Positions 7,917 through 43,520 of a stretch of 52,600 bases of DNA are shown here, piece by piece. The notes beneath the pieces are model-generated. The model did not search any database. It had not been told where the DNA came from and saw only the letters and a program-made list of their open reading frames with translations. Each line of letters starts with the position of its first letter. Within the stretch, counting starts at the first letter, position 1. The DNA is taken from contig JAHFKW010000002.1 of NCBI GenBank assembly GCA_023245145.1, forward strand, positions 1 to 52,600, given 5' to 3'. A program made the translations under genes and the position numbers. This DNA is from Candidatus Staskawiczbacteria bacterium. Its GTDB lineage: Bacteria > Patescibacteriota > Minisyncoccia > Minisyncoccales > Staskawiczbacteraceae.

Positions 7917-8948
7917 GGCTAGTAATGATGAATCAAATAAAAACCACAACAAAAAGCGGATAATTCTTTACCCATTTTTTAGGTTTTAGAAACCCGCTGC
8001 CAAGCGGTTTTTCATTTCATCAGCGAACCTTGTCAATTTTACCCTTATTAAAATATGCTCAAAAGGCATATACTTTTATTTGGTAAAGCAAATAAAAATA
8101 AGGTCTCTTAATCCATTTTAAGATGGGTCTTATTGGATTAAGAAAAGGTAACAAAAGCATATTCGCTGATAAATCTTTCACCAGATTTATTAGCATCACA
8201 AGTTCATACGATACATAAAATCTGTATCTATTACTTACGCATACGATCCCGCTTTGCGGGATCATTAAAAAATAGGTTATAAGCGAATGGTGGATGCCTT
8301 GGGATATTACAGTGATGAAAGACGTGGCGTGCCTGCGATAAGCGTCGGGGAGGTGGCTAGCAACCTTTGATCCGGCGATTTCTGAATGGGGAAACCCTAT
8401 TGTGTGAATAACGCAATAATCTGTGCCGTAAGGCATGGAAGCTAACCCACTGAAGTGAAACATCTCAGTAAGTGGAGGAACATAAAACAATGTCTCGCGC
8501 AAGCGAGACGCATTCCCTTAGTAGTGGCGAGCGAAAAGGGAGCAGTCTAAACCAGAATTTATTCTGGGGTTGTAAGGGTTTAACGTCGGGGGCATTACTG
8601 TGCTCTGCACAGAATATTGAAATATTTAAACATTTAAATATTCCGCGCAGGGCGCGGTAATGAATTCCGAGGGAGAACAAAAAGGTAAGTTATTAAAAGA
8701 AGCACCCTGGAAAGGGGCACCATAGAGGGTAATAGTCCCGTACTCTAAAATAATATTACGCTCCTTGTTAAGTTTCTTAAGTACTGTCGGGAATGATAAC
8801 CTGGCAGGAAGCAGGCCGAACTATCGGCCAAGACTAAATATGTAATATCACCGATAGTGAACCAGTACCGTGAGGGAAAGGTGAAAAGTAGGGGGATGAC
8901 CCCGGTGAAATAGAACCTGAAACCATTTGCTTACAAAGAGTCGGAGCG

Positions 8949-9450
8949 GCCACATCACACTGTGTGTGATACGGAATTGTTCTAATTACTCTAATTAACC
9001 TAATTATTCTAATCAAATGCTAAATTACCAAAATTCAAAATAAAAAAACGGCACCAATTTTTGGTCGGTGCCTCGTTGTTGCGATGAGAAAAAGATATTT
9101 TACTTTTTCTCGCGCCTGAAGAATGCGATGTATGTTTCAGTAAGTCCGATAGCTTGACACACTGAAACTAACTCCCAGCCTTCCTGCGCCATTTCATTCG
9201 CTGTATCAACTACCCCATCTTCGATGTCTTCAATTTCATTTGAACCGACGACACCGTAGTCGATAAGCATTTTGCAGTGTTCGTACATGTTTTCCTCCTT
9301 TGAGTAGGGAAACTAACTGGTTATTAATCTATCATATTATAGTTTTAATGTCAAGTTTGAATTTTGGAAATTAGTCATTGGTATTTGATTAGAATAATTA
9401 GAACAATTAGAAATTAGAATAATTTCACATCGCGCTTAGCGTGATGTGGC
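8949..9450 (+). other. 23S rRNA intervening sequence in helix 25
   Basis: About 500 nt between GGAGCG and TGTGACGGCGTGC; ~90-nt imperfect arms (GCCACATCAC/GTGATGTGGC, CTAATT/AATTAG repeats, CCAAAATTCAAA/TTTGAATTTTGG). Confidence 0.9.
9100..9288 (-). CDS. DUF4177-like small protein, SD-led cassette inside 23S IVS
   Basis: NEMAQEGWELVSV..FFRR resembles DUF4177; AAAGGAGG-5nt-ATG; promoter TTGACA-17-TAGATT (9326-9354); terminator GGCACC..GGTGCC plus U-tract (9042-9072). Confidence 0.8.
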   Translation of the reverse strand: MYEHCKMLIDYGVVGSNEIEDIEDGVVDTANEMAQEGWELVSVCQAIGLTETYIAFFRREKK

Positions 9451-11457
9451 TGTGACGGCGTGCTTTTTGCAGAACGAGCCAACGAGTTTATCTATTCGGC
9501 TTGTCTAAGCCCTTACGGGGTGAAGGCGTAGCGAAAGCGAGTGTTAATAGCGCGTTTGCCGAATGTATAAGACCCGAAGCGTGACGAGCTTACCATGTGC
9601 AGGCTGAAGTCTGTAGAAATACGGATGGAGGGCCGAACCCGTGAGTCGTGCAATCCTCTGGGATGACGTGTGGTAAGGAGTGAAAAGCTAATCGAGTTAC
9701 GTAATAGCTGGTTCTTCCCGAAACAGCTTTGGGGCTGGCGTCTGTTAAGATAGTATAGGGGGGTAGAGCACTGAATCGAAACTCTTGCCGCAAGGCAGAT
9801 TTTCGAATCAAACTCCGAATACCCTATGCCGTAAACAGGCAGTTAGACCGTGGGGGCTAAGCTCCATGGTCAAAAGAGTAACAGCTCAGATCATAGTCTA
9901 AGGTCCCTAAATTATATTAAGTGTTATGAAGGAAGTGTTTTGTCCTCGACAGGCAGGAAGTTAGCTTAGAGGTAGCTATCTTTTAAAGAGTGTGTAACAA
10001 CTCACTGTCCAAACTTTGCGGATTTCCGCGAGGAGGGACGAAATGCGCCAAAGATTTCCGGGGCTAAATATAATACCGAAGACATGGACTTATTTTTCCT
10101 TCGGGAAAAATAATTGGTAGGGAAGCGTTCCTATCGCAGTGAAGCAGGAGAGTAATCGACTGTGGAGCGTTAGGAAGTGAGAATGTTGGCCTGAGTAACC
10201 GCAATAGGGGTGAAAGCCCCCTACACCGAAAGTCCAAGGTTTCCTTGGCAATGGTATTCAACCAAGGGTTAGTCGGTCCTAAGGCGTATCCGAAAGGAGT
10301 AACTGATGGACAATGGGTTAATATCCCCATACTTGGATGCATTTCCATGACGTTGCGCATTGTAGTAATTTGGGTGGATAACTGGATTTCACATTCTGAC
10401 TTTTAAGAGTTAAGAAGAGTTGGCAGAAGTGTCAGCAATCCAAGTGAGCGCAGTGCCTAGAAAAGGCGTCGTGGGCGTGGTGCATTCAAACCGTACCGCA
10501 AACCGACACAGGTGGACAAGCGTAAGTATGCTAAGGTGAACGGGTGAGACCTCTTTAAGGAACTAGGCAAACAAGTGGACGTAAGTTCGCAATATGTCCT
10601 GCCCTTTTTCGCAAGAAAAAGGGCCGCAGCTACTGTCTCTCTACCGACTGTTTATCAAAAACACAGCTCCCTGCTAACTCGCAAGAGGATGTATAGGGGG
10701 TGAGGCCTGACCAGTGCTGGAATGTTAAGTTTGGGAGTCCAAGCCGCAAGGTTTGGGCCCACTGAATGAAGCACCAGTGAACGTCGGCGATAACTATAAT
10801 CGTCCAAAGGTAGCGTAATCCCTTGCCGGGTAAGTTCCGGCCCGCATGAATGGCTTAACGAGTGGAGAACTGTCTCAAAGAGGCGCCCGGTGAAAATGCA
10901 ATACCAGTGAAGATGCTGGTTACCTGCGGCTAGACGGAAAGACCCCGGAAGCTTTACTGTAGTTAGATATTGAATTTTAATTTTTGATACGTAGCGTAGT
11001 GGTGAGCCTTTGAAGCGGAATTTTCGGATTCCGTGGAGGCGCCGATGAAACAGCCATTTTTAAAAGTTAATATTCTAATCCACTTAACTGTGGTCACAGT
11101 GTTTAATGGGCAGTTTAAATGGGGCATTTGCCTCCTAAAGAGTAATGGAGGCGTTTAAAGGTTGGTTAGGTTCGGATGGAAATCGAACCGATAGGGCAAA
11201 GCCATACACCAGCTTTACTGCAAGACGGCTATGTCGCGCAGTTGCGAAAGCAGAACTTAGTGAACCGACGTGATTTCATAGGAAACACGAAGATCATCAG
11301 CCAAAAGCTACTCCGGGGATAACAGGCTAGTAGAGCCCGAGCGTCCATAGCGACGGCTCTGTTCGGCACCTCGATGTCGGCTCAACTTATCCTGGGGGTG
11401 GAGCAGCTCCCAAGGGTCGTGCTGTTCGCACGTTAAAAAGTTACGTGAGCTGGGTTC

Positions 11458-11488
<31 letters not shown>

Positions 11489-11830
11489 ACCGCAGGCGTT
11501 GAGTTTTGAGGAGATTTGTTCCTAGTACGAGAGGACCGGAATGAACCAACCTCTGGTGTACCAATTGTTCCGCCAGGAGCATTGTTGGGTAGCTACGTTG
11601 GGAATAGATAAACGCTGAAAGCATATAAGCGTGAAACTAACTCCAAGATGAGAACTCTTAGATTTCCCGAAGATTACGGGATTGATAGGCTCCAGGTGTA
11701 AGCTCCGCAAGGAGTTCAGCCGGGGAGTACTAATAAATCATTATATTTTTTAGCGTAAGAAAATAGATACAGATTTTACGTATCTTGTGACTATGCGATT
11801 GTTATCTTTAACACCACAGATTGAGTTCTG

Positions 11831-36463: not shown

Positions 36464-36898
36464 ATGATTTCAGACAGACAAGAAAAAATATTGGAATTAT
36501 TGATTAAAGAATACATTGATTCGGCTCGACCCGTCAGTTCCGACATGCTCAAAAAAAGACTACACCTGGATATTTCGCCTGCCACGATTCGCAATGAATT
36601 ACAAGAATTAATGGAAGCGGGGTACGTGGCCCAGCCTCACACTTCCGCCGGACGGGTACCAACCGAAAAGGGCTATCGGTTTTTCGTAACGGTTACCATC
36701 ACCCCGCAAAATCATCAACTGCCTAATTTTATTCATCGTGAAATCCAAGAAGCGCGCGAAAACATCAAAAAAGAACTCATGCTGGCGGAGGATATGGTTA
36801 GGTCTTTACGCGGAAAACTGGCTTTACTGGATGGGGTCCGGAATTTAACCGAGCAGGAAACATTATATGAAATATTAACTATTTTAGGCTCATTATAA
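36464..36898 (+). CDS. hrcA: Short HrcA heat-shock repressor (DNA-binding domain)
   Basis: PVSS, SPATIRNE, QPHTSAGRVPTEKGYR. Confidence 0.9.
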   Translation: MISDRQEKILELLIKEYIDSARPVSSDMLKKRLHLDISPATIRNELQELMEAGYVAQPHTSAGRVPTEKGYRFFVTVTITPQNHQLPNFIHREIQEARENIKKELMLAEDMVRSLRGKLALLDGVRNLTEQETLYEILTILGSL

Positions 36899-36900
36899 CC

Positions 36901-37365
36901 ATGACAGACGAACATAAGGAAAATAAAGAGGAAGAGTATTTAAACAACTGGAAGCGCGCGGCGGCAGATTTGGCAAACTATAAAAAAGATGAAATGGAGC
37001 GCATGGGGACATTATTGCAATACAGCAAAGCCGATTTGATTGAAAAAGTCTTGCCGGTATTTGATAGCATTTACTTGGCGCAAAAGAGTTTACCGGATGA
37101 TGCTGGCATTGCCCAAATTATAAAACAAATTGTAGATTTTCTAAAAAAAGAGGGGATTGAGGAGATAAAAGTGGTTGGGGAGAAATTTAATGCAGAGACC
37201 ATGGAAATTGTAGCCGCCTCCGCTGAAGCTTCCACCTTCGATAAATCTACGGCGGGACAAGCCGGCGAGCCGCAGGAAGAAATAGTTGTCGTTGAAGAAT
37301 TACAGAAGGGGTATATGATGCAAGGGAAAGTGTTAAGAGTGGCGAGGGTTAAAGTGAATAAATAA
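36901..37365 (+). CDS. grpE: Nucleotide exchange factor GrpE
   Basis: RAAADLANYKK, LPVFD, QKGY..VLRVARV. Confidence 0.93.
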   Translation: MTDEHKENKEEEYLNNWKRAAADLANYKKDEMERMGTLLQYSKADLIEKVLPVFDSIYLAQKSLPDDAGIAQIIKQIVDFLKKEGIEEIKVVGEKFNAETMEIVAASAEASTFDKSTAGQAGEPQEEIVVVEELQKGYMMQGKVLRVARVKVNK

Positions 37366-37377
37366 AGTCAAGATAAA

Positions 37378-37701
37378 ATGATTGAGGAATTTGTTAATAA
37401 AGGAATTATTTCAGATGGATGGCATACTTTTGATGAATTATACGAACACCGAGCTGAACTTTTTATAGCTCTGTGTCGCAAAGTTAAAGAAAACGTTTGG
37501 CGTAGCAAATTACAAAGTGACGGAATCATGTTTGAAAATATGTTTCTTCTGGGAGTCGGCAAAAACAAAGGCGAACAGATTACTTACCATTTACCACTTT
37601 CAAAATGGGAAGAAGTGAATTTTGCGGAAACATTAGAAAAAGCACCAGAATTTGACGGCCATACAAGTAATGATAATATTGAAAGGCTAAAAAGAATATA
37701 A
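37378..37701 (+). CDS. Conserved hypothetical protein, phage-like
   Basis: SDGWHTFDELYEHR..LF, QITYHL..W, FDGHT; recalled as a phage-associated motif set, not verified. Confidence 0.7.
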   Translation: MIEEFVNKGIISDGWHTFDELYEHRAELFIALCRKVKENVWRSKLQSDGIMFENMFLLGVGKNKGEQITYHLPLSKWEEVNFAETLEKAPEFDGHTSNDNIERLKRI

Positions 37702-37785
37702 AAATAAATAATTAAGTAACAAAGTAAAGTGTCGCAATGTCCCGCTAAGAGGGACAAAGTGAATTTCTCACTTCGTTCAAAATTC

Positions 37786-39672
37786 ATGTCAAAAATATTA
37801 GGAATTGATTTAGGAACAACCAATAGCGCGATGGCGATTGTGGAAAATGGTGAGCCAAAAATAATAGAGAATAAAGAGGGGGCACGGACTACACCTTCCA
37901 TTGTGGCGGTTTCAAAAACTGGTGAAAGGGTAGTGGGAGTGTTGGCCAAACGGCAATCAGTAACCAACCCAACTAATACGATTTTTTCGGTGAAGCGTTT
38001 GATTGGGCGAAAGTTTTCTGAAGCGGAGGTGCAAAAAGACAAAAAGAATTTACCCTATGAAATTCGCGAATCGCAAGATGGCGGAGTAGATGTAAAAATG
38101 GGAGACAAATGGTTAAATCCAGCGGAAATTTCGGCGATGATTTTACAAAAGTTAAAAGCTGATGCAGAAGCAAAATTGGGCGAGCCAGTAACTGAAGCTA
38201 TTATTACCGTGCCAGCTTACTTTGACGACAGCCAGAGAAAAGCCACCAAAATTGCCGGAGAAATTGCTGGCTTTGATGTAAAGCGCGTGATTAACGAACC
38301 AACCGCCGCGGCTTTGGCCTATGGATTAAACAAAAAGAAAGATGAGAAAATTGTGGTGTACGACTTTGGCGGCGGAACTTTTGATATTTCCATTTTGGAT
38401 GTGGGCGCCGACACCGTGGAAGTAAAAGCCACTGGCGGAGATACCCATCTGGGCGGAGATGATTTGGACCAAAAAGTGATGGATTGGATTGTGACTGCTT
38501 TCAAAAAAGATAATGGCATTGATTTGGCCAAAGATAATTTGGCATTGCAACGCATTAAAGAGGCGGCTGAAAAAGCCAAAATTGAACTGTCTAGCAGCCA
38601 AGAAACAGAAATTAACTTGCCGTTTATTACCAGCGGCGCTGATGGGCCAAAACATTTGCTGTACAAATTAAGCCGAGCGCAGTTTGAGCAAATGGTGGGG
38701 GATTACATTGATAAAAGTATTGAGTTGGTGAAAAAAACTTTGAAAGAAGCGGGTTTGGAGGCCAACCAAATTAATGAAGTGGTTTTGGTGGGCGGGCAAA
38801 CCAGAATGCCAAAAATTATTGACGAAGTAAAAAAACTGTTTGGCAAAGAACCCAATAAAGAAGTCAATCCAGATGAAGTGGTGGCGATTGGAGCGGCCAC
38901 GCAGGGCGGAATTATGCAGGGCAACGTGCGGGATGTATTGCTTTTGGATGTGACGCCACTTTCCCTGGGAATTGAAACCATGGGCGGTGTCAGCACCGTT
39001 TTAATTAGCAAAAACACCACCGTGCCAACGGCTAAAACGCAAGTGTTCTCAACCGCTGCTGACTCACAACCAAGCGTGGAAATTCATGTACTTCAGGGAG
39101 AAAGGCCAATGGCACAAGACAACAAAACGCTGGGTAGGTTTATGTTAGATGGCATTCCGGCGGCGCCACGTGGAACTCCGCAAATTGAAGTAAGTTTTGA
39201 CATTGACGCTAATGGAATTTTAAATGTGTCAGCTAAAGATAAAGCTACTAACAAAACGCAGTCTATTAAAATTGAAGGTTCAAGCGGACTTTCAAAAGAA
39301 GAAGTGGAAAAAATGAAAAAAGATGCTGAAATTCACGCCACCGAAGATAAGAAAAAACAAGAAGCTATTGAAACCAAAAACTTGGCGGATGCCATGGTTT
39401 ACACGGCAGAGAAAACGCTTAAAGATGCAGGTGATAAAGTTGCCGCCGATGCAAAAAAAGAAGCTGAAACTAAAATTTCAGCGTTGAAAGAAACTCAAAA
39501 GACTGATAACATTGAGGAAATTAAGGCAAAGACCAAAGATCTTTCTGAAACGATGCAGAAAATCGGCGCGGAGCTTTATAAACAGCAACCACAACCCGGA
39601 ACACCTGGTACCGAAGAAAAGCCAAAGGATGAACCGAAGACAGAGGAAGGCCAATTCGAAGAAAAAAAATAG
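37786..39672 (+). CDS. dnaK: Chaperone DnaK
   Basis: [34 protein letters not shown]. Confidence 0.99.
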
Positions 39673-39733
39673 GCGCCGGGTTGAATTGAATCAACTCGCG
39701 GCGCTTCAGAAAATTAGAGCCGATAAAGATTAC

Positions 39734-39979
39734 CTAAGCTTCTAATGATCGCACCTTATTGGCAACAAACCCAGCCAATTGCACAGAATCCATTGCGCTC
39801 GGAATCGCCACTATCTTGACTAATCGGATTCCGCACGAGGCACGGGTCACATTAGCTGTGCCGTTTCCGTCCCCATCTGGCTTGTAGTCGGTAACTGCGC
39901 CACAAGCGACGGCCTTGTCTAGTTCGGCTCTGGAAATTTCACAGACAATGACACCACGGTATTGAACGCACAAGATCAT
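39734..39979 (-). CDS. Small accessory protein, SD-led cassette (slot copy 1)
   Basis: GGAGG-8nt-ATG; weak promoter TTGATT-17-TATTTT (40028-40056); terminator 39662-39704. Confidence 0.68.
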   Translation of the reverse strand: MILCVQYRGVIVCEISRAELDKAVACGAVTDYKPDGDGNGTANVTRASCGIRLVKIVAIPSAMDSVQLAGFVANKVRSLEA

Positions 39980-40062
39980 TTAAGAATCCTCCAATGTCAC
40001 AATGGGTAGGTGGCTAGAACTTACTCTAAAATATCATAAATTCAAAAAGTAATCAATAGATC

Positions 40063-40121
40063 ATGGACTATTACTAAACATTAGGCATTACAAAGCAAGC
40101 CAGCCGATAAATATCAAAAAA
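40063..40121 (+). pseudogene. Remnant of dnaJ 5' end
   Basis: Reads MDYY*TLGITKQAS versus dnaJ MDYYEVLGITKQAS. Confidence 0.85.
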
Positions 40122-40123
40122 CA

Positions 40124-40510
40124 GTGAAAAAAGATTTCAAAAATTGGGGCGGACAAAAAGCCAACATTCACAACGAAAAGCAAAGGCCATTTTTTCATGA
40201 GAGGGAAGTGTGGTTTTGCACTCTCGGAGAGAATATCGGCTTTGAGCAAGATGGCAGCGGTGGTAAATTCTTACGGCCAGCGGTCATTTTGAAAAAATTC
40301 AACAATGAGGTAGTATGGATATTGCCACTGACTCGTAATCCAAAAGCAGGTAAATACTATTTTAGCGTTTTGCTGAATGGTAAAGCAAGCACCATTATTT
40401 TATCTCAAATTCGTCTGATTGATACCAAGAGGTTGCAGTACAAAATAGGAATGGTTAACGAGAATGAATTCGGTAAACTAAAAGAAGCGCTTGTGGCGCT
40501 CCTAAAATAA
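40124..40510 (+). CDS. PemK/MazF-family toxin, no protein antitoxin nearby
   Basis: EVWFC.LGENIGFEQDG, RPAVIL, PLT, SQIRLIDTKRL. Confidence 0.88.
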   Translation: MKKDFKNWGGQKANIHNEKQRPFFHEREVWFCTLGENIGFEQDGSGGKFLRPAVILKKFNNEVVWILPLTRNPKAGKYYFSVLLNGKASTIILSQIRLIDTKRLQYKIGMVNENEFGKLKEALVALLK

Positions 40511-40519
40511 GTGGTAGAA

Positions 40520-40596
40520 ATAGTTACTCCCGCTTGCGCGGGAGAGGGCCGAAGCCGTTTGTACGTTAAGTATAGCAGAATAAAGACCCGTGTCAA
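40520..40596 (-). ncRNA. Putative small structured RNA transcribed antisense toward pemK, with its promoter
   Basis: TTGACA-16-TATACT (40569-40596), then minus-strand hairpins with UUCG and GCAA tetraloops. Confidence 0.45.
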
Positions 40597-40601
40597 TAGA
40601 C

Positions 40602-40667
40602 GCAGAAGAAGGCCAATTTGAGGAAAAAAAATAGGCGCCGAAAGTTGATTGAACAACTCGCGACGCC
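40602..40667 (+). repeat. Diverged duplicate of dnaK 3' end plus terminator
   Basis: Encodes [10 protein letters not shown] versus dna[11 protein letters not shown], followed by a homologous GGCGCCG..GTTGA..CAACTCGCG.CGC hairpin. Confidence 0.92.
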
Positions 40668-40674
40668 AATAGAA

Positions 40675-40863
40675 CTATTTTTTTGATGTCTTGCGGGGGG
40701 GAGCTTCAATTCGAACAGATTCGAATTTGCCTCCACTCTGTGTGCACATGCGATATTGAAGAAGACTGCAGAGTTGCCGAAGGAATTCTTGATCTTTTTT
40801 GTTCCTTGGAACCAACAAAATCGTTGGGGTTATAATGTCCTCTGTTTCGAGAACGCAATTCAT
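40675..40863 (-). CDS. Small accessory protein, SD-led cassette (slot copy 2)
   Basis: AAAAGGAG-6nt-ATG; promoter TTGCAA-17-TATAGT (40908-40936); terminator 40624-40667. Confidence 0.7.
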   Translation of the reverse strand: MNCVLETEDIITPTILLVPRNKKDQEFLRQLCSLLQYRMCTQSGGKFESVRIEAPPRKTSKK

Positions 40864-40940
40864 GATTTTCTCCTTTTACGGAAGGTTGAATGTGCAATAC
40901 CTGAATAACTATATCATAAATATAATAAATTTGCAATAGC

Positions 40941-42017
40941 ATGGACTACTATGAAGTTTTAGGCATCACAAAACAAGCCAGCGCGGACGAAATCAAAAAA
41001 GCTTTTCATAAGCTGGCTCATAAGTATCACCCTGATAAAGGCGGGGATGAGAAAAAGTTTAAAGAGATAAATGAAGCTTATCAGGTTTTAAGTAACGCCG
41101 AAAAGCGCCAACAGTATGATCAATTTGGCAGAACGTTTGATCAAAATGGCGGAGGAGCTGGAGATTTTAATTGGGCTTGGCAGAATCAGGGAGCAAGCGG
41201 TTTTGATCCGGAAGACTTGGGTGATATTTTTGAGAACTTTTTTCAATTTGGAGGTGGGGGACGCAGAGCTAGCAAAAAAGATATTAAAAAGGGTAAAGAT
41301 ATTCAAATTGACATTGAAATTGCACTGGAAGAAACTCTGCAACCCATTCACAAAAAGATTTCTCTGAAAAAAGAAATTACGTGTACACGATGCGTAGGCA
41401 AAGGCGCCGAGCCCGGAACAAAAGTTAACGAATGTTTTTCATGTCGGGGAAGTGGCCAGGTGCAGGAAGTTAAGCGCACCATTTTGGGCAGTTACACGAC
41501 ATTTACCACTTGTCCGGAATGTAAGGGCGAAGGGAATAGACCCGAAAAAGTTTGCAATGTGTGTCATGGCGAAGGCCGATTAAAAGGCCATGAGGACATT
41601 GAATTTACCATTCCCGCTGGCATTGATAATAATCAGGCTATTGAAATTGATGGCAGAGGTGACGCTGGTAAGAAAAATGGCAAAGCCGGGAATTTGTATG
41701 TGCGAATTTTTGTAAAAAAGCACCCTGTGTTTTTGCGCAAAGGTGATGATTTATATTTATCTCGTGAAATTAATTATTCGGACGCTATTTTGGGTGGCAA
41801 CATGGAAATGCCAACACTAGAAAATACGCCGATTATCGTTAAAATTCCGGCTGGCACCGAATCGGGAAAAATTTTACGCATCAGTGAAAAAGGAATCCCG
41901 CATTATGGCAGTTACGGCAGAGGCAGTATTTATGTGGAATTGATTATCAAAACGCCCAAAAAAGTAAGTAAAAGACAAAAAGAATTACTTGACCAATTGC
42001 GCCAAGAAGGGTTATAA
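40941..42017 (+). CDS. dnaJ: Chaperone DnaJ
   Basis: J domain HPD, G/F region, four CxxCxGxG repeats. Confidence 0.98.
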   Translation: MDYYEVLGITKQASADEIKKAFHKLAHKYHPDKGGDEKKFKEINEAYQVLSNAEKRQQYDQFGRTFDQNGGGAGDFNWAWQNQGASGFDPEDLGDIFENFFQFGGGGRRASKKDIKKGKDIQIDIEIALEETLQPIHKKISLKKEITCTRCVGKGAEPGTKVNECFSCRGSGQVQEVKRTILGSYTTFTTCPECKGEGNRPEKVCNVCHGEGRLKGHEDIEFTIPAGIDNNQAIEIDGRGDAGKKNGKAGNLYVRIFVKKHPVFLRKGDDLYLSREINYSDAILGGNMEMPTLENTPIIVKIPAGTESGKILRISEKGIPHYGSYGRGSIYVELIIKTPKKVSKRQKELLDQLRQEGL

Positions 42018-42039
42018 TCGAAGGGAGGAAGAAAAGCGG

Positions 42040-42111
42040 GCTCCTATAGCTCAACGGTAGAGCAGTTGCCTTTTAAGCAATTGGTTCCAGGTTCGAATCC
42101 TGGTGGGAGCA
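42040..42111 (+). tRNA. tRNA-Lys(TTT)
   Basis: GCTCCTA/TGGGAGC acceptor stem, GTTGC-CTTTTAA-GCAAT, TTCGAAT. Confidence 0.94.
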
Positions 42112-42147
42112 CAGGGTAAAAAAAGTCTTCAACTTAAGGAGTTGGCC

Positions 42148-42567
42148 ATGGTTGCGCAGAGCATGAAAAAATTGGCAGATCTTTTTGTCATAGACTTGGC
42201 AGGCTGGGAAATTGGCTATTGCCATTTCCTGGAACTGGAACACTCGTGTATGGGGACCTTCCCCGCGATTAGGCTCAGCGACGGAGCCCCAATGTTGGTG
42301 GCGGAAAAAGGTTTACTAAAACTGGTTTGGGAAGCTGTTGGGCAGTGTCAAGCCAGAACATCAAGTTTTTTGGGTCTGTTTAACCGCCGACTCGGCCTCG
42401 TCTTTAATCTGGAGGCACCCGGATCCAACAAGGGCAATTCCGTTTCGCTCAAACTTTTCGGGAGGGATGAGATTCAAATCCTGGTCAATACACCCAATGG
42501 CTTAGGATGGGCACCGGGACTTCTGGGCGGCAGCGAAGGTATCGCATCTCCCCTAAGATTCGACTAA
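42148..42567 (+). CDS. Accessory hypothetical protein, SD-led
   Basis: AAGGAG-6nt-ATG just after tRNA-Lys; terminator 42603-42650. Confidence 0.65.
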   Translation: MVAQSMKKLADLFVIDLAGWEIGYCHFLELEHSCMGTFPAIRLSDGAPMLVAEKGLLKLVWEAVGQCQARTSSFLGLFNRRLGLVFNLEAPGSNKGNSVSLKLFGRDEIQILVNTPNGLGWAPGLLGGSEGIASPLRFD

Positions 42568-42710
42568 CTCGCACTTTAACGGCCAAGCTCTAAAGATCGA
42601 CCAAGCCCCTTAATGCAAAAGGAATTGCAGCAAGGGGTTTTTATTTTTTGGTAGTTTTTTAGTGAATAATGTGTGTTGCACATAGACCAGCTCCATGGTA
42701 CGATTAATAC

Positions 42711-43397
42711 ATGAAATCAAAATATCACTCATTAAAAGAGATGGCTATTAATCTACGGAAGAACGGGAGAAGTTATAGTGAAATTATAACAATAACTAAA
42801 ACTAAAATCCCTAAAAGCACTTTATCTACATGGTTTAGTAAGATTTATTTAACGAACGAGCAAAAGAAAAGAATACATGCCAACATCAAGGAAAGCTCAA
42901 GAAAGGGAATGGAGGTGGCAAGAGTTGTAAACAAACGAAGAAGAGAAAAATACCTACAATCCATAATTGACCGCAATCAACATCTTTCCCTGACGCTAGA
43001 AGATATAAATACATCGAAAGTAGTTTTATCAATCCTTTATTTGGCAGAAGGTGCAAAAAGTATGAAAAGAGGCTCTTTGTATTTTGGAAATTCAGACCCG
43101 TTTATTATAGATCTATTCTTGAGTTTAATGAGGAAGTGTTATACTATTGATGAAAGTAAATTTCGCTGCACTCTCTTATGCAGAGCTGATCAGAACATTT
43201 TAAAATTAGAGAAGCTTTGGTCAAAAATAACAAACATACCAAAAAAACAGTTTTATGGAGCAAGAATTGATCCAAGAACTATTGGGAAGCCCTCTAGAAA
43301 TCTAGGGTATAAAGGTGTCTGTAAAATAGATTATTTTTCTGCTGACGTATTTCTAGATTTAATGACCGTTCCTAGAATAATTCATAAGGGCCCGTAG
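42711..43397 (+). CDS. HTH plus single LAGLIDADG-like domain protein
   Basis: AINLRKNGRSYSEI..KSTLSTW helix-turn-helix; LYLAEG, F.NSDP..I..F pattern. Confidence 0.7.
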   Translation: MKSKYHSLKEMAINLRKNGRSYSEIITITKTKIPKSTLSTWFSKIYLTNEQKKRIHANIKESSRKGMEVARVVNKRRREKYLQSIIDRNQHLSLTLEDINTSKVVLSILYLAEGAKSMKRGSLYFGNSDPFIIDLFLSLMRKCYTIDESKFRCTLLCRADQNILKLEKLWSKITNIPKKQFYGARIDPRTIGKPSRNLGYKGVCKIDYFSADVFLDLMTVPRIIHKGP

Positions 43398-43461
43398 CTC
43401 AGCTGGCTAGAGCGTTCGCATGGCATGCGAAAGGTCGTCGGTTCGAATCCGATCGGGTCCA
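43388..43461 (+). tRNA. tRNA-Ala(GGC)
   Basis: GGGCCCG/CGGGTCC with G3:U70, TTCGC-ATGGCAT-GCGAA, TTCGAAT. Confidence 0.94.
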
Positions 43462-43520
43462 CATTGACAAATCCTGTTTACGCGGTAGTATGTAGTATCA
43501 ATAACCTAACTCAAAAAACC

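Follow-up and report, generated by a model that had tools for sequence, protein, structure and literature searches.

Why should the spacer between dnaK and dnaJ contain a second dnaK end and a second dnaJ start, and how did a toxin gene come to lie between them? The question is posed by a window of 52,600 nucleotides (the whole stretch of DNA that was analysed; positions 1 to 52,600 of contig JAHFKW010000002.1, GenBank assembly GCA_023245145.1) from a Candidatus Staskawiczbacteria bacterium. Its genome, here called G000, was recovered from groundwater metagenomes; it comprises 625,768 bp on 14 contigs, is 99% complete and, judged by its size, belongs to an ultra-small bacterium. Labels of the form G0xx denote genomes, G0xx:Cn contigs, Lnnn loci, and X1 to X4 public sequencing runs. 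The dnaK gene (longest open reading frame [ORF] 37729-39672 on the plus strand from a GTG, with a likely true start at an ATG near 37786) and an intact dnaJ gene (40941-42017, plus strand; 358 amino acids with the Pfam domains DnaJ, DnaJ_CXXCXGXG and DnaJ_C) are separated by 1268 nt. Read from dnaK to dnaJ, this spacer holds a hairpin, a small minus-strand ORF (ORF A), a promoter region, a dead 5′ fragment of dnaJ, a gene for a PemK/MazF-family toxin, a copy of the dnaK 3′ end, and then a second hairpin, a second minus-strand ORF (ORF B) and a second promoter region. This tandem order and its coordinates, described in an original prediction made from the sequence alone, are borne out exactly by the sequence and the ORF list.

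In our view the locus is probably a true scar of recombination, situated in a slot of the heat-shock operon whose content is hypervariable. The pemK gene, which the original prediction had treated as a bystander, appears instead to belong to the inserted module that created the tandem, and the same kind of scar is found at other genes.

The two copies of the spacer

An alignment of the two spacer copies finds homology in the 32-nt dnaK end, the hairpin, the promoter and nucleotides 1-60 of dnaJ. The downstream dnaK end (40603-40634, plus strand; ..EEGQFEEKK and the stop codon) is attached to no gene and matches 39641-39672 at 29 of 32 nt. Its three differences within the EEGQFEEKK-stop codons (GAG/GAA, TTC/TTT and GAA/GAG) are all synonymous, as had been claimed, and both copies encode GQF where the 18 other genus genomes compared have GE followed by F, V or Y. 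At full length the dnaK-end repeat spans 38 nt at 92% identity (39641-39678 and 40603-40640), the dnaJ-start repeat 43 nt at 81% (40062-40104 and 40940-40982), and the promoter-block repeat 29 nt at 76% (40031-40059 and 40911-40939). These repeats lie well above chance, and a gapped self-BLAST of the spacer returns one match of 66 nt (86% identity, E 3e-15) and another of 92 nt (75%, E 2e-11). The homology proposed for the terminator and promoter regions is also upheld by column counts, the hairpin/terminator segments being identical at 28 of 36 columns and the promoters at 24 of 35. The dead dnaJ fragment (40063-40121, plus strand) begins ATG GAC TAT TAC TAA, with a stop at codon 5. Its homology to the live start is firm over 40063-40104 (34 of 42 nt identical, dnaJ nt 1-42) and weaker over 40105-40121 (14 of 19, nt 43-60), and it has an ACA (Thr) codon where the live dnaJ has GTT; G007, the closest relative, has ACA as well.

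Between terminator and promoter the two copies cannot be aligned. The best local nucleotide score of 11 equals that of shuffled sequence (11.0 ± 1.6, with 179 of 300 shuffles reaching 11), and the ORF A and ORF B proteins score 19 against 21.0 ± 3.7 (360 of 500 shuffles reach 19). The earlier statement that leader and ORF show no similarity is therefore correct, with local scores at shuffle level.

The junctions themselves are real. Contigs made by another assembler from the public runs X1 to X4 were placed on positions 39000-41600. A single X1 contig of 1334 nt (depth 19.6) spans 39655-40988 with no difference; X3 supplies contigs of 396 nt (39688-40083) and 814 nt (40062-40875), likewise without differences, and X4 three error-free pieces across 40364-41000. 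X2 leaves 39609-40478 uncovered and is uninformative either way. All four runs stem from one groundwater study, possibly including the source sample, and they amount to an independent assembly, not to independent DNA; these contigs rule out an artefact of the assembler, though not an oddity specific to the sample. The longest exact run common to both spacer copies is 18 nt, too short to mislead an assembler at k=31. A 2-nt deletion variant at 40642, within terminator 2, is present in X1 at a depth of 4.8 out of 24.4 and points to a second haplotype of the locus in the sample. Two low-depth joins, from 39671 to 40941 (X1, depth 2) and from 40648 to 40941 (X2, depth 2), were considered as a possible single-slot strain and rejected; because they have fewer than 30 letters on one side and 90% likeness, they are taken to be short spacers of other organisms, that of G008 being 3 nt long.

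The original prediction saw the promoter and terminator as fixtures of the slot, and it is their strand and ownership that must be revised. On the plus strand each copy presents A8-TAG and then a GC-rich hairpin; read on the opposite strand, this becomes a hairpin with U8 behind it, and the proposed promoter (ATATCATAAAT...CAATAG) likewise becomes a sigma-70 promoter. Both elements are thus minus-strand features and must be assigned to the small ORFs instead of dnaK or dnaJ. Terminator 1, assigned to ORF A (39662-39704, minus strand), consists of a hairpin at 39673-39704 followed by U8 at 39662-39669; its minus-strand fold has -18.3 kcal/mol (z -3.6, with none of 200 shuffles as good), and its U8 overlaps the KK codons of dnaK and adjoins the dnaK stop. 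Terminator 2, assigned to ORF B (40624-40667, minus strand; hairpin 40634-40667, U8 40624-40631), folds with -20.3 kcal/mol (z -5.4, again 0 of 200). On the minus strand both have the GC-rich hairpin and U8 of rho-independent terminators, and on the plus strand a U tract follows neither; a simple terminator scan overlooked both, probably owing to an inner bulge.

Promoter 1, serving ORF A (40028-40056, minus strand), reads TTGATT (40056-40051), 17 nt, TG-n-TATTTT (40033-40028). By eye it matches 8 of 12 consensus positions, which is under the threshold of the promoter scan, and 7 nt separate its -35 box from the ATG of the dead dnaJ. Promoter 2, assigned to ORF B (40908-40936, minus strand; TTGCAA at 40936-40931, 17 nt, TG-n-TATAGT at 40913-40908), was found by the scan with 9 of 12 matches plus the TG, its -35 box 5 nt from the dnaJ ATG. 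Our sigma-70 calls are consensus matches (hexamers at 16-18 nt spacing) and stand for predicted promoters. As predicted from these elements, each version of the spacer would be a complete backward unit of promoter, Shine-Dalgarno site, small ORF, and hairpin with U8. On the plus strand, neither the promoter scan nor a reading of the sequence revealed a promoter or Shine-Dalgarno site ahead of dnaJ or pemK, from which we infer that both genes are transcribed by readthrough from dnaK.

The pemK module and its scars

The insert appears to be a module of about 0.5 kb, composed of a promoterless PemK/MazF toxin gene and a convergent small-RNA gene. The toxin gene (40124-40510, plus strand) has a GTG start and encodes 128 amino acids, of which residues 28-126 match positions 4-108 of the 109 in the Pfam profile PF02452 (E 1e-11; 45.4 bits against a cut-off of 23.1). 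Comparison with EndoA/MazF structures gave a full-length but weak match (E 0.045). In this weak alignment with EndoA (4mdx), LRPAV stands opposite VRPVL and PLT opposite AIT, and the Arg and Thr of these motifs are presumably the conserved catalytic positions of MazF/EndoA. The protein carries an N-terminal KDF..W extension, and searches of PADLOC and NCBIfam assigned it to no family.

The convergent gene (40483-40596, minus strand) has a -35 box TTGACA (40596-40591) and a -10 element TG-n-TATACT (40574-40569) at 16-nt spacing, matching the consensus at 11 of 12 positions plus the TG, and its transcript is predicted to start near 40562. On the minus strand this RNA would form a hairpin GGC(UUCG)GCC at 40547-40556, a second hairpin CUCCCGC(GCAA)GCGGGAG at 40527-40544, and a third with a U-rich tail at 40503-40483, within the pemK 3′ end. 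The minus-strand fold has -29.9 kcal/mol and a z of -4.2, compared with -1.7 for the plus strand. A permissive Rfam scan of 39600-41000 placed CRISPR-DR28 on hairpin 2 (23.3 bits, threshold 35) and gave a sub-threshold SAM-II match of 18.1 bits, both taken as chance; G018:C47 has the same hairpin and is no CRISPR array.

A PemK query of 25 genus genomes found 11 loci, comprising three G000 paralogues and a further eight distributed over seven other genomes; two of these eight are broken genes. The G000 paralogues are 34-42% identical to the copy in the window. Past the stop codon of every one of the 11 genes, at 63-87 nt, there is a convergent promoter of the form TTGAC(A/T), 16 nt, TG-n-TATA(A/C/G)T. 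On both strands of the 625-kb genome of G000, sites of that quality number 20, and three of these lie behind the three pemK paralogues. The consensus fold of the small RNA has 9 pairs, 4 of them with compensatory changes across the 11 loci. Hairpin 1 is closed by UUCG at 7 of 11 loci and by GAAA, GUAA or GUUA at the rest, and hairpin 2 by GCAA in five cases, GAAA in two and UUCG in one, all read on the minus strand. These are stable tetraloops (UUCG/GNRA) on the minus strand only, the plus-strand loops being unremarkable.

No ORF that might encode a protein antitoxin is conserved beside pemK at the 11 loci, save syntenic host genes. The module begins at the pemK start codon, straight after the local host gene, and in the window the sequence upstream of pemK is the dead dnaJ stub. 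We infer that the small RNA acts as the antitoxin that holds PemK down. Having no promoter of its own, pemK would probably be transcribed within dnaK-operon transcripts, since the hairpins lack a plus-strand U tract, and the small RNA with its strong promoter would repress it, either by antisense pairing at the pemK 3′ end or by transcription collision.

Such modules commonly sit in a scar, in which the insert stands between direct copies of its target and one copy of the gene is intact. This arrangement is found in the window, at htpX on another contig of G000, and at 8 of the 11 modules, where stretches of the local sequence, 31-155 nt long and 75-92% identical, are repeated directly on both sides. 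At G000:C13 35314-36002 (L049:1402-2090) a pemK paralogue lies between a dead 83-nt htpX 5′ stub (MASIYTQ...VIA, then a stop) and an intact htpX. As with the dnaJ stub, the htpX stub precedes pemK and the intact gene follows the small-RNA promoter, and two of the three pemK copies in G000 precede heat-shock genes (dnaJ and htpX). On G019:C28 it is the final 127 nt of pgk that are repeated. Partial copies also occur in dnaK-dnaJ spacers of relatives, G019 having a second dnaJ start (128 nt, 94%) ahead of another gene pair, and G006 a second dnaK end (34 nt, 82%).

Repeats of other kinds were observed as well. On G018:C31 (L027 3157-4768) a gene 3′ end (...KEPIE and stop) is present three times, as copies of 55-130 nt with 67-82% identity; a broken pemK module and other sequence lie between them, and the contig ends inside the repeated gene. 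A common sequence of 35-48 nt (...CAGCTCTGGAGTTGGAGG...) flanks different cassettes in G040, G012 and G018, at L043 (G040:C3) 1451-2047, L050 (G012:C5) 1468-2043 and L031 (G018:C47) 298-1115. In G040 and G012 it encloses pemK modules that precede a RuvB-like ORF, whereas in G018:C47 it encloses a different ORF; it looks like another recurrent slot.

The coding parts of the repeats bear on where the second copies came from. A copy that decays in place is expected to change faster than the live copy, and mostly non-synonymously. Among seven coding repeats compared, the differing codons are synonymous in 46 cases and non-synonymous in 23, with the nucleotide differences distributed 20/10/54 over codon positions 1/2/3; the dnaJ′ of G019 contributes nothing to these totals, is identical to its live copy across the first 69 nt, and by eye shows 3 synonymous differences and 1 non-synonymous one. 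The pgk′ of G019 retains its frame and its own stop and differs at 18 synonymous and 4 non-synonymous codons. The htpX′ stub is 92% identical to the live copy, and its differing codons split 6:1. When polarised with G007, five of seven changes fall on the live copy and two, both synonymous, on the dead one, which encodes exactly the G007 peptide; under decay in place such a split has a p of ~0.005, by a rough binomial estimate made by hand. Mostly synonymous differences fit a joining of alleles from different lineages better than the decay of one copy in place. The proposal that the duplicate derives from a functional allele of a related lineage is consistent with this signal, which is stronger at pgk′ and htpX′ than at the dnaK end where it was first noted.

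Origin of the tandem and of its cargo

In the sequence of events that we favor, DNA from a related lineage would have carried pemK, the small RNA, the 32-nt dnaK end, terminator 2, ORF B, promoter 2 and the start of dnaJ. It would have recombined homologously in dnaJ just past nt ~60, while its other end joined illegitimately within the recipient dnaJ, at about +44 to +60; integration of a circular copy by a single, Campbell-type crossover would give the same product. The recipient's terminator 1, ORF A and promoter 1, together with the dead dnaJ stub, would have stayed upstream as the imported unit restored dnaJ, and the insertion would be tolerated because dnaJ remains whole. The incoming piece would already have had a dnaK-end fragment beside the module, and this implies that the donor lineage had itself undergone an earlier insertion at its dnaK 3′ end, comparable to those in G006, G019:C28 and G018.

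Sequence comparisons suggest a native origin for ORF A and the stub, and a joint import of pemK, the dnaK fragment, ORF B and the initial ~60 nt of dnaJ. Over its first 60 nt the live dnaJ is 77% identical to that of G007, and over each of the next four segments compared (~nt 61-240) it is 93% identical; over dnaK the two genomes share 94% amino-acid identity. The ACA codon that the stub has in common with G007 points the same way. Codon usage was scored on a scale on which true 72-codon pieces reach 0.205 ± 0.096 and decoy ORFs -0.047 ± 0.104. The score is host-like for ORF A (0.171) and not for pemK (0.08) or ORF B (-0.012). ComEC (181 bits) and RecA (430 bits) are both encoded in G000. The joints themselves revealed no microhomology that could be assigned with certainty.

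Several observations weigh against this account. Three of the 11 modules have no flanking repeat, and the 11 loci are homologous and hence not independent observations. A repeat in G018, X′, differs at 12 synonymous and 11 non-synonymous codons, and the dnaJ′ stub of the window has a nonsense codon and an indel, so that some decay in place has occurred. The synonymous signal within the window rests on three sites. The htpX′ stub, 92% identical to its own live copy, is closer to it than the live htpX is to any other species sampled (at most 78%, with a 295-nt query), and the donor must therefore be an unsampled near relative. No recombination breakpoint is visible in htpX when four relatives are compared; we found no donor allele, nor a strain with ORF A or ORF B alone, the contigs from the public runs having good depth for the tandem form only, and an exact-pattern scan of metagenome contigs for the dnaK end gave 0 matches. 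Over their first 42 nt the dead and live dnaJ starts are, by eye, equally far from G007 (35 and 34 nt identical). ORF A has 51% GC in a genome of 40%, which is awkward for a native origin, and the promoter consensus count in the whole region is 4, where shuffles lead one to expect 3.3.

Some of these points would suit a duplication in place, in which a template switch or unequal crossover duplicated the stretch from dnaK -33 to dnaJ +60 and captured the pemK module, the copies then diverging and one cargo later being swapped by recombination in the flanks. The GQF present in both dnaK ends and in none of the 18 other genus genomes compared, the closeness of htpX′ to its live copy, and the first 69 nt that the G019 dnaJ′ has in common with its live copy are all in keeping with such an origin. 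Transformation-triggered tandem duplications are also documented (PMC3784515). Yet the unrelated ORF A and ORF B would require an extra replacement event, and the dead copies have not changed in a mostly non-synonymous manner: pgk′ stands at 18:4 with its frame kept, htpX′ at 6:1, and only two of seven polarised changes fall on the dead htpX′. We consider a duplication in place unlikely.

That the slot exchanges its cargo is indicated by the genus as a whole. Of the 24 same-genus genomes listed, G000 included, 19 have both gene ends on one locus; of the other five, G012 gave a partial locus, G014 and G020 have the two ends on separate contigs, and G018 and G022 gave no match. In these 19 the dnaK-dnaJ spacer measures 3-2098 nt and its cargo differs. 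A ParE-family toxin is present in G015, with similar ORFs in G016 and G004; DUF4258 and DUF2283 proteins in G013, with a DUF2283-like ORF similar to that of G013 in G006; a DUF6290 protein in G004; an unnamed gene pair in G019 and G006; a DUF2238 membrane protein in G019; and elsewhere many unrelated minus-strand ORFs. From this gene content the slot appears to be a hypervariable hotspot that often holds toxin-antitoxin genes. G014 has A8-TAG-hairpin sequences on L025 (G014:C70) 2203-2245 and L006 (G014:C75) 875-917, one with a dnaK end and the other with a dnaJ start, and its assembly may break at a similar tandem spacer.

A minus-strand promoter (at least 8 of 12 consensus positions) is found at the dnaJ ATG in 9 of the 19 genomes, with the -35 box 3-10 nt away. 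Behind all nine there is an ORF of 51-105 amino acids with a Shine-Dalgarno-like motif (in some only AAGG or AGGA), starting 23-90 nt past the predicted transcript start, and none of these ORFs matches another. The A8-TAG-hairpin terminator at the dnaK stop was found by pattern in 3 of 19 (G000, G010 and G015) and by eye also in G005 (6 nt after the stop), on the two G014 contigs and at an unrelated G010 locus; the G007 spacer has a different hairpin. The idea of a fixed promoter-terminator frame thus holds in part: the predicted promoter at dnaJ is widely retained, the terminator is patchy, and the cargo appears to be different each time. In its ground state the slot would contain a backward unit that starts from a sigma-70 promoter, the -35 box being 3-10 nt away from the dnaJ ATG. 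A Shine-Dalgarno site and an ORF of 50-105 amino acids, specific to the lineage, would follow, and then a terminator of hairpin and U8, the latter overlapping the last dnaK codons.

The two cargo ORFs of the window differ in how gene-like they are. ORF A (39734-39979, minus strand; 81 amino acids, with GGAGGA at 39987-39992, 7 nt before the ATG) has a codon score that 1.9% of decoy ORFs reach. Its sole distant homologue among 1.84 billion representatives searched with HMMER is P0003, a protein of 78 amino acids with 40% identity (E 3.6e-8) and 28 invariant positions; no coding locus for P0003 was confirmed in genome and metagenome contigs. A single-sequence AlphaFold2 model of ORF A has a pLDDT of 61.7, too weak for a fold search. 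ORF B (40675-40863, minus strand; 62 amino acids, with AGGAGA 5 nt before the ATG) has a decoy-like score, which 38% of decoys reach. No homologue of ORF B was found in 5.8 billion word-indexed proteins, where ORF A and ORF B queries retrieved only themselves, nor by six-frame search of 300 other genomes of the order, nor in the ESM Atlas, which returned nothing usable for either ORF. The six-frame search gave marginal matches, at E 0.004 and 0.009 inside long frames for ORF A and at E 0.006 with stops for ORF B, and Pfam, NCBIfam and PADLOC hold no family for the two. Part of the ORF B frame (40696-40773) resembles G000:C14 56097-56174, just upstream of the C14 pemK paralogue, over 26 amino acids at 50%; this similarity is weak (blastp E 4e-5 in a tiny database, tblastx E 0.011 genome-wide) and probably due to chance. 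By these measures ORF A is probably a real small protein, and ORF B may be a protein or merely an antisense transcript. The original prediction offered two readings of the differing cargo, replacement and extremely fast evolution. Replacement behind a retained promoter fits better, because ORF A has one distant homologue elsewhere, and fast evolution in place is not supported.

The small ORFs might also be incidental altogether, with the conserved backward promoter making antisense RNA against dnaK-dnaJ readthrough and the sequence behind it drifting or being replaced freely, its ORFs untranslated. Compatible as it is with our account of the tandem, and in agreement with unrelated ORFs behind a promoter kept in 9 of 19 genomes and with the poor codon score and missing homologues of ORF B in the searches made, this view seems to us improbable: it does not account for a Shine-Dalgarno-like motif and an ORF start 23-90 nt past the predicted transcript start behind nine promoters out of nine, or for the host-like codon usage of ORF A and the 28 invariant positions in its homologue.

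Two further explanations fare worse. A cis-mobilisable islet (39673-40602), moved by an integrase acting in trans with the dnaK 3′ end as attachment site, would resemble the tandem islands at tRNA genes and gene 3′ ends, and the 38-nt repeat bounding the segment, the threefold gene end in G018 and the 35-48-nt repeat around cassettes in G040, G012 and G018 are of that character. Against it, the ORF list and Pfam reveal no integrase-like ORF within or beside the segment (36500-43500; no genome-wide intI/attC search was made), the repeats vary in length (31-155 nt) and in sequence from locus to locus, being in each case the local gene end, and a single attachment site leaves the second repeat, of promoter and dnaJ start, unexplained; we regard such site-specific accretion as very unlikely. 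A chimeric assembly of two strains living together, which the original prediction had allowed for and which a metagenomic source with more than one haplotype at 40642 might invite, was not borne out and is hardly credible, given the X1 contig across all junctions without mismatch, the lack of any exact run above 18 nt common to the copies, and a stop-bearing dnaJ stub and pemK joints that fit no single-spacer strain.

The surroundings of the slot have irregularities of their own. dnaK is the last large gene of a run hrcA (36464)-grpE (36901)-WDGH (37378)-dnaK. The hrcA-like ORF (36464-36898) has just 144 amino acids, matches in Pfam only the N-terminal DNA-binding domain of HrcA (E 1.3e-5), and may be a short form or a remnant. 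The WDGH-domain gene (37378-37701; Pfam PF25311, E 1e-30) between grpE and dnaK represents extra cargo at a second junction of the operon. At gathering threshold, an Rfam scan of the whole window returned rRNAs, 4 tRNAs and a group I intron only. The intron (73 bits; 676-1144) lies within the 16S rRNA gene, and the 23S rRNA gene, whose match (8267-11753) covers 3487 nt against a model of 2925 positions, probably also carries insertions; 16S and 23S are ~6.4 kb apart, and a tRNA-Ala (2674-2745) lies on the opposite strand. Downstream of dnaJ, between a tRNA-Lys (42040-42112) and a tRNA-Ala (43388-43462), is a stretch of ~600 nt (47-51% GC) in which no gene is convincing, and then a 228-residue ORF (42711-43397) that has no Pfam family (best E 0.053) and contains a motif that may resemble homing endonucleases.

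Known systems and significance

Homology-facilitated illegitimate recombination and insertion-duplication are familiar from work on Acinetobacter and pneumococcus. One-ended recombination of this type is described in naturally competent bacteria (PMC3240628). As in such illegitimate or Campbell-type integration, one-sided homology (or a circle) would here leave an insert between partial target copies; unlike it, the process is deduced from natural genomes, at several genes, and with one copy always intact. In pneumococcus, transformation can trigger a tandem duplication that keeps an essential gene intact beside an interrupted copy (PMC3784515). Those merodiploids resemble our locus in the intact gene beside an interrupted copy and in the partly homologous fragment that acts as trigger, but they are described there as 100-900 kb long, bounded by insertion sequences (IS) and made of identical copies, whereas the tandem considered here is ~0.45 kb long and has diverged alleles and different cargo. 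For the lpl cluster of Staphylococcus aureus, an evolutionary unit made of an ORF 3′ end, an intergenic region and the next ORF 5′ end has been described (PMC2568036). The exchanged unit likewise spans a gene end, a spacer and the next gene start in our case; the lpl genes are tandem paralogues that recombine at an internal conserved block, while here the flanks are two unrelated single-copy core genes.

The module invites comparison with three types of toxin-antitoxin system. With type II PemIK/MazEF systems it has in common the Pfam PemK_toxin domain and Arg and Thr positions that align with EndoA, albeit in a weak match, and it differs in having no upstream or overlapping antitoxin ORF at the 11 loci, no promoter of its own, and the KDF..W extension. 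Type I systems such as txpA/RatA and bsrG/SR4 have convergent antisense RNAs that overlap at the 3′ end. A strong convergent promoter and a short structured RNA opposite the toxin 3′ end are predicted here as well; type I toxins, however, are small hydrophobic membrane peptides and not RNases, and PemK is a soluble MazF-family protein of 128 amino acids. ToxN, of the type III system ToxIN, has a MazF-like fold and is kept in check by RNA. The gene of its partner, the tandem-repeat RNA ToxI, precedes the toxin gene in the same orientation, in contrast to the downstream, convergent RNA gene of the module, and the repeat list for 38500-42200 contains no ToxI-like tandem repeats. The slot resembles known hotspots between core genes in its conserved flanks, its turnover between species and its toxin-antitoxin cargo, and departs from hotspots with toxin-antitoxin or defence genes in lying inside a heat-shock operon, in a 0.6-Mb genome, with 0-2 kb of content and a fixed backward promoter. 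In the literature searched, supplementary tables not being covered, neither a hotspot of toxin-antitoxin genes between dnaK and dnaJ nor a MazF protein paired with a convergent RNA was found to be described. New here are the strand assignment, the proposed role of the pemK and small-RNA module in creating the tandem, and the pattern, seen across the genus, of core-gene stubs that carry synonymous differences.

Tentatively, and with more doubt than conviction, we put forward a broader proposal. A promoterless MazF-family toxin and a convergent, tetraloop-capped small RNA may form a new class of toxin-antitoxin system in ultra-small bacteria, one without a protein antitoxin, that lives off the transcription of housekeeping and heat-shock genes (at the 5′ ends of dnaJ and htpX and the 3′ end of pgk). 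It would spread between lineages with a piece of the target gene as homology handle, each hop leaving a core-gene stub, and the dnaK-dnaJ spacer would be a standing socket, where unrelated small genes replace one another downstream of a backward promoter fixed at the dnaJ ATG.

Should this reading fail, the locus would be an ordinary hotspot of horizontal transfer with a toxin gene, and of merely local interest. If it is true, the locus would be a readable record of gene trade in genomes of ~0.6 Mb without obvious mobile-element machinery, brought about by ordinary recombination with one sloppy end and tolerated where an intact copy of the target is rebuilt. Stubs with synonymous-only differences would then be fossil alleles of the donors. 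A MazF-type RNase under the control of RNA instead of protein would blur the divide between types I, II and III, and a promoter that is conserved among sister species, yet followed in them by unrelated small ORFs, would offer a natural system for following the birth, swap and loss of small genes.

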